A DNA stretch of 58,555 nucleotides from Seison nebaliae. Taxonomy: Eukaryota. Made by a program: the position numbers and the translations under genes. Below, piece after piece: positions 3,170-56,540 of this stretch. Under the pieces are notes generated by a model. That model saw only the letters and a list, made by a program, of their open reading frames with translations, did no database searches and was not told the DNA's origin. The stretch lies in NCBI GenBank assembly GCA_023231475.1, contig JALJEE010003272.1, positions 1-58,555 of the forward strand, read 5' to 3'. Each line of letters opens with the position of its first letter. Positions within the stretch are counted from its first letter, which is position 1.

Positions 3170-6100
3170 ATGGAGCTTCCTAGAATTCATGAAACAAATA
3201 CTAAACGAATTTGTCAATTATTTGATGAAACTTATCAAGAGACGTTATTCCAAGCGTTATCGACCGATTATCATGATAGATTATATGAAGTTAACATTTC
3301 AGGTTATTTTAATTTCTTTCCAATTTCAATTAAATTCCATCTCTAATCAGATGATGAACCCAAGAAGAATCTTCAAAATTTATGTTTCGACGTTCTAGTC
3401 GAGAGTTATCGTGACCATCTTCCCGATCTCCTTTTACTCTTAAAAAAATATGTAATTGAAATTGAGCAAAGTTATTTGGATGTCCCAGAAATTCTACAGA
3501 ACTCTCAAAATTTTCCAAATTTATATAAAAATTTTCTTTCGACTCAATATCTGACTAAGAAGAAAGTGAAGAAAATGTCATCGAAAATTCCATCGAAAAT
3601 TCTCGTGAAATTATTAATGGTAATTTTTCAGGAAACGAAAATGAATTCATTAAATGAATCCTTTTTTCCTTTCTGGTATTTTCCCACATTGATCCTCAAT
3701 GATTTCATTCGTAAAATGAAAAAATCAGAATTTAATCCTCTCAAAAAAATTTCAATTTGTATCCACAATAAAGAAACATTAATAATGATAACGAAAATCT
3801 TATCGAATTATATTCAAAATTGGAGACAAAATCAAATTCAATATCTCGACATCTCTCCAGCATATCTATCACCTATGACGTTGACTTATCTGGCAAGAAA
3901 GACGGAATTACACAACAACTTCTCCAGTCGAACAATTGCTCTATATCAAGAGAGGAAATTACATTTACAAAAACTCATGTACTTCCGTAATGGATTACAA
4001 TCACTGGTTGGAATCGGTTTGAAGAATTTGCAGAAAAAAATTGACAATTGTCATCTGGAAATTCAAGAATATAAGAATAAAATCGGAAATGTTATCGATC
4101 CCAGAAAGATCGATGAAAATGATTTCTCACTTTATTCGAATGATGATAATGAAATTTTTAAGAATAACAATAATAATTTCACAGATAAAACAGAAAGAAA
4201 AGATGGTGAGAATGTAATAGGAAAAATTCAAGTTGAACGTGAAGGTTATTTACCAGAAAATATCGAAATTGGAAAAAGTGAAAGAAATTTACAATCTCCA
4301 ACTGAAAACAATGAAAACTTAGAATCGTCAATTGAAAATAATGGAAATTTACTATCGTCAATTGAAATTGATGAAAATTTACCATCAACAATTGAAACTG
4401 ATGGAAATTTACCATCAACAATTGAAAATGATGGAAATTTACCATCAACAATTGAGAATAATGGTAACTTACCATCAATAAGTGAAAATCGTGAAAACTT
4501 AGAATGGTCAGTCGAAAATAATGGAAATTTATCATCAACAATTCAAAATATCGGAAATTTATCGTCAACAATTGAAAATAATGGAAATTTATCAGAAAAA
4601 CTGAAAGTTGGAGACGGTGAAATTTCGTTGAAAAAGAATGATGTGAATAAGATTATGACAAAGAATCCAGTCGCACAAATTGATGAAATGTTAGATGAAA
4701 CGGTAAATTTTAGAGATGATAAATTAGTAGAATATTTATTGGCATCAGTACATTATTTGAAGACATGTATTATTCTCTCATTAAAGATAACGTCGAAAGA
4801 CCAATTGGAAGATTTGAAGACGTTATTAAATAATCAGAATCGATCGAATATTAATTTTATAATAAAACAATTGAGTATAACGAATTGTAGTTATGATGAA
4901 TTATACGAAGTATTTCGATTAATGAAACATGTGAATAAGTTTATGGAATCGTTGTCAATTCATTGTTGTGTGACATCAACCGTTTTTCCGATATTAACAT
5001 TATTCTTATTGGATTCCTTTTATTTACCTATAACTCATAAATGGTCGACGAAAGTATTTCCCAATTCAACAACATTTAAAAATTTGACATCTCTCAATCT
5101 ATCGAGATGTAATCTTAATTTCAATACAGAAACTAATCGATCGATAATGAAAGAAGTAATGAAGGAATTGAAGAGATTAAGATGTTTAGATCTCTCAGAA
5201 AATAGAATTGATGGATCGCTTGTATACATTTTACCACGACCGTTCCGTGTGGATGGAAAGAAAACGAACGATCATATCAAAGTGTTAATATTGAGGAAAT
5301 GTGAATTGAATAGGAATGATATTTATGGAATTGGTGCGACATTCGAACCGAATATAAATTTTGAATATTTTTCAAAATGTGTAACAAATCTTCCAATATC
5401 GGCGACGAGCTGCACAAACGGAATTAATACCGGATTGGAATATTTGGATTTGAGTGAGAATAATTTGAGCAAATATCAGGAAATGATGAGTAAAGATTTA
5501 TTGCCGAAATTAATTAAACGTACATCAGATTTAACGACGTCAATTACTGATTTTTGTACTTTGACATTCCTCAAAGAATATGACAAATCCACGTCGACCT
5601 TCAGTGATTATTTGAGGAAGAAAGATAATTTGACAGCGGAAGACAATAACACAATTTATGAATCGGTGATGAAAATTCAAAAAAAGATTCCTGCAATCGG
5701 ATTAAGAAGTCTGATTTTGGACAACGTCTCATTTACGGACGATCAATTTCTCAGTTTTCATTTATCACTTCTCAGGAATTGTAATTCGGCATTAACTTTT
5801 CTGAGTTGTCTCGGTGATTTTGAGGTGGCGAGAAATATGGCGGTTGGATGGATTTATAATAACATTTTCCAGAGAGGTTTCCGTATCAACAATAATTTAT
5901 TTCTACGATTGGCAATTCCACGATTGGGATTATCCGATCTCGTTTTTCTCGATCGATATGCAGTTCGCCCTCCATTCCGATTGAATCAACGACATGTCGT
6001 TCGAAATATCGAAGTTCGCAATCATAACCCAGACAACAACAACGACCACCAAATTATTAATGATGATAATGGTAACAATGAATTGAGGAATGAGGAAATC

Positions 6101-6805
6101 AATAATCATTTGATAAACGATGGAAATGACGTGGCAAATGACATTAGAGATGATGGTCAACTTCCTCAGAACGACAATATCGCTGGTGATGGTAACATGA
6201 TAATTAATGAAGAAATTATCATGGACAATGAAGGAAATGATGATTTAAATGATAATTTGAGAAATCACATAAATGACGGTGGGGAAGACGATATCATGGA
6301 GTTCGATGATGATGTTATTCTAGACAATCAAAATGTTGAACCAAACGGTAATGACATCATCAATTATCAGGATGATATCCGACATGATTTTATGGAAGAT
6401 AACGGTAATAACATCATCAATCATCAGGATGATATCCGACATGATTTTATGGAAGAAAACGATAATGATATTATTAACCATCAGGATGATATCGAACATG
6501 ATAATATGGAAGAAAACGATAATGATATCGAACCTGATGATAATTTAAATAACCGTGATATTGTTGTGGAAGATGAAATCAACAATAACATCAATAACGA
6601 AAATGTTAACGAAAATGATAATGGAAATGATAATGGAAATGATAATGAAAATATATCAGCATCATCAGAAAGACAGCATCCTGCCAAAGTGTTCAGTGTT
6701 GAAGAAATATTGACGATCGTTGCCATGCAATTTCCACAATATGTCCGGTTAATTTTCGATGAGAATGAAAAGAAAGAAATAAAAAAAACGTCGAAAGAGA
6801 TCTGA
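3170..6805 (+). CDS. Leucine-rich-repeat protein, PRAME/LRRC14-like, ~1195 aa; exons 3170-3302 and 3351-6805
   Basis: Removing a 48-nt GTT..CAG intron (3303-3350, contains an in-frame stop) joins ATG 3170 to the 3476-6805 ORF. LRR motifs: LTSLNLSRCNL, LRCLDLSENRI, LEYLDLSENNL, LRSLILDNV. N-terminal PKKNLQNLCFDVL is BC-box-like, and IPSKILVKLLMVIF...FWYFPTLIL resembles PRAME LPRELFPPLFMAAF...AWPFTCLPL. Confidence 0.65.
4301..4600 (+). repeat. Coding minisatellite, about ten 30-bp units (10-aa consensus IENNGNLPST)
   Basis: attgaaaa(t)aatggaaatttaccatcaaca-like units recur with 30-nt period inside the LRR gene. Confidence 0.9.
6344..6530 (+). repeat. Coding minisatellite, about three 60-bp units (20-aa NDIINHQDDIRHDFMEENDN-like)
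   Basis: atcaggatgatatc(c/g)..catgat recurs with 60-nt period in the Asn/Asp-rich tail of the LRR gene. Confidence 0.85.
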
Positions 6806-54900: not shown

Positions 54901-56540
54901 CATGTGAAGTTCAGGAACAGATGGAATCGGTGGTAACAAGATGTCGTCCCGATTATAATTGGATGGATGATGATACGAAAGATTATAATGAACATTGGAT
55001 CCTCCAAGCGAAATATGCACCGACAACTACTACAAAACCAAAATTTCAATTAGGTGATGAAATATCATTAGGTGATATGGAATTGTTGACCGTTTCCGAA
55101 TCAGATTCAACCGCCACATTTTCTGATGAAATCGTAAGAACAACAACAACAGTCAATCCTTTAGATTCTCTCAATTCGACGATGGATCCGAAAAATATTA
55201 TGAATCTACCCGAACTCAAACGAGATCATACGCCATGGGAATATCAGAATTCGGTTCTATTGAAAAGTGTACCGTTTGTGGGTCGATATAATAATTATAA
55301 AGGTGGTGGTTATGTCATTCAATTAGGTAGGAGTGACAAACGATCGAAGAAAGCGTTGAAAGAATTGAGAGAGAAAGATTGGTTGGATCAATTATCACGT
55401 TCTTTATTCATAGAATTTACGGTATATAATGCACAAGCAAATTTGTTCGCTTCCGTTACATTAGTGGCGGAGATTTCCGCCATCGGTGCCATAGAACCGT
55501 TTTATACAGTGAAAGTGTTTAGACTTTATGATTTCATTGGAGATTTCGCATTCATCGTTCTCTTATTTCAATTATTGTTTTTGGGATTCTTCATCTATTT
55601 TCTCGTTCATATGATTCTCACAATGAGAGTGAAAGGATTCCGAGAATATTTTATGGGATTTTGGGACTTGGTCGAATTTTTCATGAACATTCTCGGCATT
55701 CTCAGTATTACAATGTACGCGTTGAAAAAGATCTGGACAAGTCAAGCTATAAAAATCGTGAAAGAGAGTGCTTTGGGTGAATTCGTCAACTTTAACGCCA
55801 TCGCTCAATGGGACGAAGCGTTTACGATGGTTGTGGGTTTATTGTCGTTTTGCGGAATTTTGAAATTTCTCAAAATGTTACGATTCAACAAACGGATCAG
55901 TATGTTGAGTGATACGTTAAAATTGGCAGTTGCTGATTTACGAAATTTTGCATTTGCTTTCTTCATCTTCTTCTTTGCATATATCCAGTTTATGGTTCTA
56001 GTGTTCGGTAGCCATCTTTGGGATTATCGAAGTTTTTTGGTTTCTTTCGAATCTTTATTCGCCTTCTTAATGGGAGCATTTAAATTCGACGAAATTATCA
56101 ATGTCAATTGGACAATGGGAGTTCTCTTCTTTGTCTCCTTTACTACTTTAGTCTATATGTTATTATTAACCATCTTCCTGGCCATCATCAACGATTCCTT
56201 CGCTACGGTAAAGAATAATGCGTCTCTCCAGACGAATGATTATGAAGTGATGGAATATATTTGGCAAAATATCAACGAGAAGAGACACAAAATTAAGAAG
56301 CGTATTGATCACAATCGAAATCGAACTAAAGAAACTCTCCAACATTTACCCAAAGTGGATACGACTCTCATCGAGGAGGAAAGTATGGATAGCAAGATGA
56401 AAAATAAGAAAAGCGAATTATGGACAGTCAACAAAGAATTATATCGTCGAGAAGATTCGAAAGAAAAAAGTTTTGTTTTAAATATGTTTATTATTCTACT
56501 AAAAAAATGTAAATTTCTTTTAGGCTTCGATGAGATCTAA
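45982..56540 (+). CDS. Polycystin-1 family (PKD1-like) receptor-channel, ~3,400 aa; introns 46210-46285, 46493-46538, 52407-52453, 52641-52693, 54806-54897 and probably 56470-56523
   Basis: Signal peptide MFLIISILYFFL; PKD-domain motif VDWGDGT; Thr-rich stretches; GPS CRYW...W..DGC...CLCNHL/TAFG; TM1; PLAT/LH2 (YLLSIYTG...LRIWHDNSGKG...FLCEKWLAVEKDDG); HLWFSV..RP.RS.FTRLQRVSCC; polycystin TOP and channel domain (WLDQLSRSLFIEFTVYN...LAIINDSF). The last donor is ambiguous (56470 or 56475). Confidence 0.92.

Follow-up and report, generated by a model that had tools for sequence, protein, structure and literature searches.

The question raised by this stretch of DNA from Seison nebaliae, the 58,555-nucleotide contig JALJEE010003272.1 of assembly GCA_023231475.1 (hereafter the window), is whether its introns are recognized through a 5′ splice-site code in which the third intron position (+3) has been switched to U. 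Seison is epizoic and belongs to the Syndermata, the group that unites rotifers with acanthocephalans; its genome measures about 46 Mb, and two lineages of it have been published (PMC8351084). The preliminary description of the window had reported that every intron it reconstructed begins with GTT. An independent reconstruction, in which junctions were defined from genomic sequence, protein annotation and homologues, gave 31 coding introns across eight genes, and all 31 started with GTT. The ten donors quoted in the preliminary description were found at their positions, two of them (43336 and 42684) being minus-strand donors, and its tallies were reproduced, including G at +5 in 6/31 donors and a length of 39–55 nucleotides (nt) in 28/31 introns. 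The window has 32% GC and contains 14 protein-coding genes and two reverse-transcriptase fragments. After excision of the 31 introns there were no internal stops in any of the 14 gene models, and 27 of the 31 introns are obligatory, as their length is not a multiple of three (3n) or they contain an in-frame stop. The count covers the coding region, with introns of untranslated regions (UTRs) outside it; the density in the window is 0.71 coding introns per kb of coding sequence, and 6 of the 14 genes have none. The use of GTT at all coding donors in this window is confirmed by the data described below.

The annotated proteins provide one line of support. Back-mapping of the NCBI proteins SNEBB_004907 (Acinus) and SNEBB_004914 (TMEM208) to the DNA placed GTT at 8/8 and 4/4 junctions, respectively. 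Intron 1 of TMEM208 has tandem acceptors at 41338 and 41341, which give annotated isoforms of 177 and 176 amino acids (aa), and this one-residue difference suggests that the annotation was informed by transcripts. The junctions of all 31 introns were also called blindly with a forward–backward posterior model, in which positions +3 to +6 were scored flat; the 12 annotated introns supplied its length prior and its intron-body model. This model replaced an earlier gene finder, which had no terms for length or acceptor and several of whose calls, chiefly those in TMEM208, Acinus and ZMYM, were misplaced or not GTT. The donor posterior was at least 0.75 at 29/31 introns. When +3 was set to A or to G, 31/31 or 30/31 junctions, respectively, were still recovered, which indicates that the caller has no pull toward GTT. 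Homologues pointed in the same direction. Among the 92 usable of 120 WDFY3 homologues the GTT junction ranked first at both WDFY3 introns, with a score at intron A of 116.8 compared to 110.7 for the unspliced sequence and 106.1 for GTC, while the 14 TMEM208 homologues ranked it first at three of four introns. Spliced alignment of TMEM208 to single homologues recovered only some junctions, because the identity is low. Additionally, a diverged low-depth contig matched the window through +8 of the donor at 54806, then carried 43 other letters, and the match resumed at the acceptor. As to chance, T follows GT with a frequency of 0.41 in non-coding and 0.39 in coding sequence, and at 14/26 (0.54) of intron-internal GTs. 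At 0.54 the probability of 31/31 GTT is 5 × 10^-9, and that of 12/12 for the annotated introns 6 × 10^-4; the 95% lower bounds on the GTT share are 0.91 and 0.78, respectively.

The introns are distributed unevenly among the eight genes. The LRR gene has one, at 3303..3350 (plus strand, GTTATT, 48 nt), which contains an in-frame stop and was called with a blind posterior of 0.99; the single intron of DMAP1, at 7827..7879 (minus strand, GTTTCT, 53 nt), was called with a posterior of 1.00, with the stop fixed at 7797. Acinus contains eight annotated introns on the plus strand: 10403..10445 (GTTTGA, 43 nt; posterior 1.00), 10476..10528 (GTTCAT, 53 nt), 11486..11529 (GTTTGT, 44 nt; donor posterior 0.84), 11662..11711 (GTTTTC, 50 nt), 12117..12161 (GTTCCG, 45 nt), 12254..12302 (GTTTGT, 49 nt), 12363..12404 (GTTTTT, 42 nt) and 12561..12609 (GTTAAT, 49 nt), where the second and the fourth to eighth were also supported by the blind model. 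A gene for a 117-aa protein has two on the plus strand, one at 13636..13686 (GTTCAA, 51 nt), which is 3n and optional with a posterior of 0.88, and a weakly supported one at 13869..13908 (GTTCCC, 40 nt), where the chosen stop leads the next of five by 2 log units. WDFY3 also has two on the plus strand, intron A at 31857..31895 (GTTTTT, 39 nt), favored by homologues with a blind posterior of only 0.58, and intron B at 31984..32031 (GTTTGA, 48 nt), supported by homologues.

The four introns of TMEM208 (plus strand) are located at 41296..41341 (GTTAAA, 43 or 46 nt in the two annotated isoforms; homologues), 41429..41475 (GTTAAT, 47 nt; annotation, blind model and homologues), 41530..41574 (GTTCGT, 45 nt; annotation, posterior 0.82) and 41815..41864 (GTTATT, 50 nt; annotation, blind model and homologues). 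The ZMYM-like gene on the minus strand has seven, which are, from intron 1 to intron 7, 43531..43594 (GTTAAT, 64 nt; posterior 0.99), 43419..43464 (GTTATA, 46 nt; 1.00), 43289..43336 (GTTGAG, 48 nt; 1.00), 43115..43159 (GTTCCA, 45 nt; 1.00), 42937..42988 (GTTTAT, 52 nt; chosen on length over a rival GTC at 42965), 42630..42684 (GTTCCT, 55 nt; 1.00) and 42469..42514 (GTTAAT, 46 nt; 0.95). The last six introns belong to a polycystin-1-like gene on the plus strand: 46210..46285 (GTTAAT, 76 nt; posterior 0.77), 46493..46538 (GTTTTT, 46 nt; 1.00), 52407..52453 (GTTAAT, 47 nt; 1.00), 52641..52693 (GTTAGT, 53 nt; 1.00), 54806..54897 (GTTCCA, 92 nt; 0.99), where the diverged contig differs in the intron interior only, and 56470..56523 (GTTTTG, 54 nt, 3n, optional; 1.00). 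The three longer introns (64, 76 and 92 nt) are thus also GTT. In the first 1/400 part of the published transcript map of the species 27/39 gaps were 39–55 nt long and 12/39 lay outside this range, compared to 3/31 introns in the window, which suggests that longer introns are commoner genome-wide.

The information at these donors is strongly concentrated in one position. Over background, +3 contributes 0.92 bits, −2 contributes 0.46 and +5 contributes 0.26, while the other positions contribute at most 0.2; +4 holds 0.06 bits, with A in 11, T in 11, C in 8 and G in 1 of the 31 donors. Further downstream, G is found at +5 in 6, T at +6 in 19 and T at +7 in 16, and the complete motif GTTTGT in 2 of 31. 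Adenosine at +3 was found in 0/31 donors, although A makes up 0.335 of the intron-body bases, which are 50% T; the absence of +3A, despite the abundance of A and its canonical pairing with U1, argues for exclusion rather than tolerance. Sixteen of the 31 donors have neither G at −1 nor G at +5. The exon ends, described in the preliminary description as widely varying, are instead non-random, with A at −2 in 22/31 and a purine at −1 in 25/31. Since G at +7 is as enriched as G at +5 (6/31 each), it is doubtful whether what remains of a +5G signal is real. Among the +4/+5 sub-motifs, CC (5/31, p = 0.001), and AA (7) and TG (4), both with p about 0.01, are post hoc, uncorrected hints only. The acceptor side is conventional: all 31 introns are GT–AG, a pyrimidine precedes the AG in 28/31, and T occupies positions −6 to −4 in 21–22 of 31, so that the introns carry U2-type ends (GT...YAG with a pyrimidine-rich 3′ end). 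No excess of branch-point motifs was found in these introns, with YTRAY in 9/31 compared to 15.1 in shuffles. Two other readings of the donors were rejected. Shifted-register GUUAAGU sites did not fit, as G was present at +6 in 3/31 and the full AAGT at +4 to +7 in 0/31, and the U12-type donor RTATCCTT was found in 0/31.

The comparison with related taxa, which the preliminary description had called for, supports its proposal that +3 was rewired in this lineage. An alignment of bdelloid WDFY3 was scanned against metagenomes, which gave 12 loci (L001–L012). For each of them Adineta or Rotaria was nearer, by a factor of about two or more, than any of the ten further animals compared. L001 was intronless and was left out, and the 11 remaining loci (L002–L012) were splice-aligned without the use of +3 information. 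Introns with six gap-free flanking residues and at least three identities per side were kept, and those that failed were dropped uncounted. The +3 position of the 84 distinct introns was A in 75, T in 6, G in 2 and C in 1, while for L010 alone (52 introns) it was A in 44, T in 5, G in 2 and C in 1. The difference between 31/31 GTT in the window and 6/84 in bdelloids is highly significant (Fisher p = 2 × 10^-22; 3 × 10^-11 for the 12 annotated introns alone). In both lineages +3 carries more information than any other position (0.92 bits in Seison, 0.95 in bdelloids), and the favored bases are opposite. The bdelloid introns are also short (79/84 below 75 nt, median about 55 nt) and AT-rich (43% T), and their donors have A at −2 in 58/84, A at +4 in 55/84, G at +5 in 29/84, and A or G at −1 in 37/84 and 42/84, respectively. 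Hence, the two lineages have in common that their introns are short and AT-rich, that +5G is weak and that exon ends are rich in A, while A-to-U at +3 is what differs. The bdelloid donors are weak and lean toward U5, which may have pre-adapted the group to the +3 switch.

The association with +5G also differs. Among bdelloid donors G at +5 accompanied GTT in 5/6 and GTA in 22/75 (p = 0.014), while in Seison it accompanied GTT in 6/31 (p = 0.005 against bdelloid GTT). In bdelloids +5G thus compensates for GTT, as a U1 mismatched to +3U would predict, and in Seison it does not, which together with the absence of +3A suggests a positive reading of +3U. One intron could be followed directly between the lineages. 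Intron B of WDFY3, which starts with GTTTGA at 31984 in the window, shares its codon and phase with the GTAAAT intron at 23437 of L010; both are in phase 2 and fall at the same residue with 6/6 reference proteins. The position of TMEM208 intron 4 is probably also old, as 4/14 homologues end or diverge at that residue. WDFY3 has 2 introns in the window compared to at least 52 in L010. The WDFY3 homologue matches are bilaterian, and in a WDFY3 tree of 44 rows the window sequence was unplaced, on a long branch (1.88). An Rfam scan of L010 gave no match.

The explanation that we favor, by a modest margin over all others together and in line with one option of the preliminary description, is a compensatory change in U1 small nuclear RNA (snRNA), in which the base facing the +3 U became A, so that GUU is a positively read donor core. 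It is drawn from the donor statistics and one precedent, and starts from the +3 switch, which bdelloids lack, the single orthologous GTA/GTT intron, the −2A preference, the narrow length range and the low intron density. Under this explanation, ordinary U2-type introns would be defined across a short U-rich body of 39–55 nt. U1 would form a short helix centered on +1 to +3, making the +3 pair indispensable, while loop 1 of U5 would grip the A-rich exon end through −2A. G44 of U6, in the register that places it opposite +3, could accept the U as a G–U wobble. Heavy intron loss would have allowed the surviving introns and U1 to co-evolve, as proposed for Entamoeba.

Several points weigh against this explanation or against the uniformity of the code. 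A changed U1 raises the mean number of U1 pairs from 5.6 to 6.6 of 11, a gain that is true by construction, and it should keep +4A, +5G and +6U favored, while these are weak here (11, 6 and 19 of 31). Most lineages with atypical donors retain a standard U1, among them Giardia, Trichomonas, Micromonas and Thecamonas (bioRxiv 10.1101/2022.06.08.495308), and all 236 fungal U1 candidates were standard (PMC10581693), although lineages combining standard U1 with atypical donors show mostly +4 changes. The in-place conversion rests on one intron, with no L010 counterpart for WDFY3 intron A, and the bdelloid set represents one gene, with introns that are partly orthologous across loci. Among the calls themselves, ZMYM-like intron 5 is ambiguous between GTT at 42988 (52 nt, blind posterior 0.48) and GTC at 42965 (31 nt, 0.52). 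The blind model further predicts a GTG intron, optional and in frame, at 43660 (posterior 0.78) and gives GTC at 54196 a posterior of 0.38, and against homologues a GC donor at 41518 scored slightly higher than GTT for TMEM208 intron 3 (204.3 vs. 202.0). Finally, an acceptor-like TTAG lies two bases before the ATG of RPS19 (candidate exception at 14757..14825, minus strand), and the GTs within 290 nt of it are all GTA (14825, 14815 and 14789).

The missing +4 to +7 consensus, expected of a full U1 helix, is also an argument for the strongest alternative, namely that U1 is standard or marginal and that +3U is enforced later or by a protein: by the ACAGAGA box of U6, by the Prp8 pocket, or by a divergent U1C, LUC7 or TIA-1 reading GUU and the U-rich intron start. 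We consider this possible, with a clearly smaller probability than a U1 change. The strong −2A, which is common to Seison and bdelloids (22/31 and 58/84), fits a selection led by U5, and many lineages with atypical donors retain standard U1. In Entamoeba, GUUUGU pairs better with U6, and U1C has diverged (bioRxiv 10.1101/2022.06.08.495308), while tunicates altered splice-site reading through U2AF paralogues and patterns of N6-methyladenosine (m6A) (PMC13326754). However, bdelloids show that an unaltered U6 tolerates +3A, and with such a U6 the base would not be kept out of Seison donors. The known effects of U6 m6A and SNRNP27K concern +4 (PMC10581693, PMC11347140), and this also disfavors the m6A, METTL16 or SNRNP27K option raised in the preliminary description, as +4 holds so little information here. 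No protein-only switch at +3 was found in the literature searched.

It is unlikely that GTT is dominant without being exclusive and that the window under-samples a second class with GTA or GTG, made up of longer introns, of UTR introns or of those read by a second U1. A candidate for such a class is the RPS19 5′ site, where only GTA is available nearby and where the GT of GTAATA forms the end of a 25-nt block that the diverged contigs conserve; the larger share of transcript-map gaps outside 39–55 nt, the GTG call at 43660 and a GTACAT that precedes the Acinus start codon point the same way. The GTG call lies within a Pro-Val-rich stretch, which we take to be a motif conserved in ZMYM proteins; neither PDB nor Pfam decided the question. 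On the other hand, the three longer introns are all GTT, the lower bound from 31/31 is high, and the RPS19 candidates have exon ends TTT or TAT, which are atypical for this window. Trans-splicing occurs in rotifers (PMC11347140), and because it needs no cis donor, the RPS19 acceptor could stand without one. The site is either a GTA 5′-UTR intron or a spliced-leader trans-splice site. The homologue search with RPS19 gave distant matches only. The ATG of DMAP1 is preceded by a similar acceptor, to which the same two readings apply.

The remaining two alternatives are largely excluded. That no special recognition exists, and +3T follows from T-rich short introns or from bias of the reader or the annotation, is very improbable. 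The intron bodies are indeed half T, and a genome-trained annotation would reinforce a majority motif, but 31/31 GTT is highly improbable at the intron-internal frequency of 0.54, +4 to +8 are near background, and the blind caller is unbiased under the +3 swap. Moreover, bdelloid introns of similar length and AT content use GTA, so that length and AT content, offered as a cause in the preliminary description, do not explain +3T. That a mobile introner element which happens to start with GTT gave rise to the introns by copying is least credible of all, since, despite the narrow length range and the absence of WDFY3 intron A from L010, pairwise intron similarity is within that of shuffles (maximum 38, compared to a mean maximum of 33.6 and values up to 47) and WDFY3 intron B, probably with TMEM208 intron 4, occupies an old position.

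The window also contains a U6atac snRNA gene at 9744..9851 on the minus strand (Rfam RF00619, 54.3 bits) with an intact AAGGAGA box, which suggests that the minor spliceosome is likely retained in this fast-evolving rotifer relative. It was the only match in the Rfam scan of the window, in which no U1 was found. The possibility that U6atac was repurposed as the reader of the GTT introns was dropped, because the gene has a standard box and RTATCCTT is absent from the donors. The DMAP1 ATG, also on the minus strand, follows the 3′ end of the U6atac gene at a distance of only about 40 nt, and this interval includes a GTT...AG stretch of 34 nt. Operon-like same-strand gene pairs, about 120–150 nt apart, were noted on the minus strand for DMAP1 and Las1 (7652–7797) and for V-ATPase e and the CCA enzyme (37084–37208). 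WDFY3/ALFY (17000–32131, plus strand) encodes 5014 aa compared to about 3500 in homologues, has a first exon of 14.8 kb, and appears to end before the C-terminal FYVE domain that the homologues carry. The low-depth contigs (covering 14551–15362 and 47256–56177) are about 80–88% identical to the window, with mostly third-codon differences, and occur in runs of two studies; they behave as DNA, without spliced joints, and likely represent the second Seison lineage. The non-coding blocks 14979–15059 and 15302–15362 are conserved in them and have no Rfam match, and an Rfam E-value scan of 13900–17000 gave sub-threshold matches only. A 74-aa open reading frame at 45662–45886 (plus strand), just upstream of the polycystin gene, has no Pfam match, and a diverged contig matches it to its stop codon. 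Broken reverse-transcriptase fragments resembling long interspersed nuclear elements lie at 33911–34267 and 56832–57110.

In some nematodes GTT donors form a minority. No description of such a GTT code for Seison or another animal was found in the literature searched, which includes subscription journals only in small part, and GTT donors in rotifers were not mentioned in passages of PMC8351084, PMC10125929, PMC7310846, PMC11347168, PMC4901422 and PMC3488318. We give roughly even weight to the broader proposal that a near-absolute GUU code, read by a re-coded snRNA, extends over the whole Seison genome and is the first of its kind in an animal, with in-place conversion of GTA introns, exclusion of GTA and GTG, almost no other intronic donor information and an intact minor spliceosome. 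The pairing of U1 with the 5′ splice site is among the most conserved RNA–RNA contacts in animals, and for co-evolution between snRNAs and splice signals, a long-standing question, few examples exist, of which those in amoebae are the clearest. An animal with close GTA-using relatives offers a dated comparative case, in which it can be asked whether intron loss or the change of reader came first, and how thousands of donors went from A to U. The case also isolates +3 from +4 to +6, and thus tests the separate contributions of U1, U5 and U6. In practice, gene prediction that was trained on GTR donors will produce erroneous annotations in this lineage.

The closest known system is that of Entamoeba, the only published +3U case, where donors are GUUUGU(U), U1 carries ACAAAC (5′ AACAAAC) and U6 retains a normal ACAGA (Roy and Bowser, bioRxiv 10.1101/2022.06.08.495308). 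Seison resembles it in near-universal +3U (31/31, in one window), low intron density and U2-type GT–AG introns. However, Entamoeba donors are strict from +3 to +7, with 97–98% GUUUGN, and its branch points are constrained (same source), while the Seison window fixes +3 only and its YTRAY count falls below that of shuffles; Seison is also an animal that keeps U6atac. The Seison system works like that of Entamoeba, yet lacks these two defining features, and it is not filed as a member. The preliminary description mentions neither the Entamoeba precedent, nor the −2A preference, nor the U6atac gene. The switches to +4A or +4U linked to METTL16 and SNRNP27K, with U1 and U6 unchanged (PMC10581693, PMC11347140), are similar in being lineage-wide changes at one donor position with an AG//GU-like reliance on U5, but the preference for +4U is not seen in Seison, where +3 is fixed instead. 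The shifted-register GUUAAGU 5′ splice sites, reportedly described by Roca and Krainer in 2009, share the GTT start, while the consensus one base deeper is not seen in the window. Fritillaria borealis, in which U2AF paralogues and m6A allow 95% of introns to depart from GT/AG with a conserved core spliceosome (PMC13326754), is likewise an animal with rewired splice-site reading, but Seison retains GT–AG and has one internal base switched. Bdelloids, finally, share with Seison the short AT-rich introns and the common −2A, and differ in having +3A (75/84), +4A (55/84) and at least 52 WDFY3 introns where Seison has 2.

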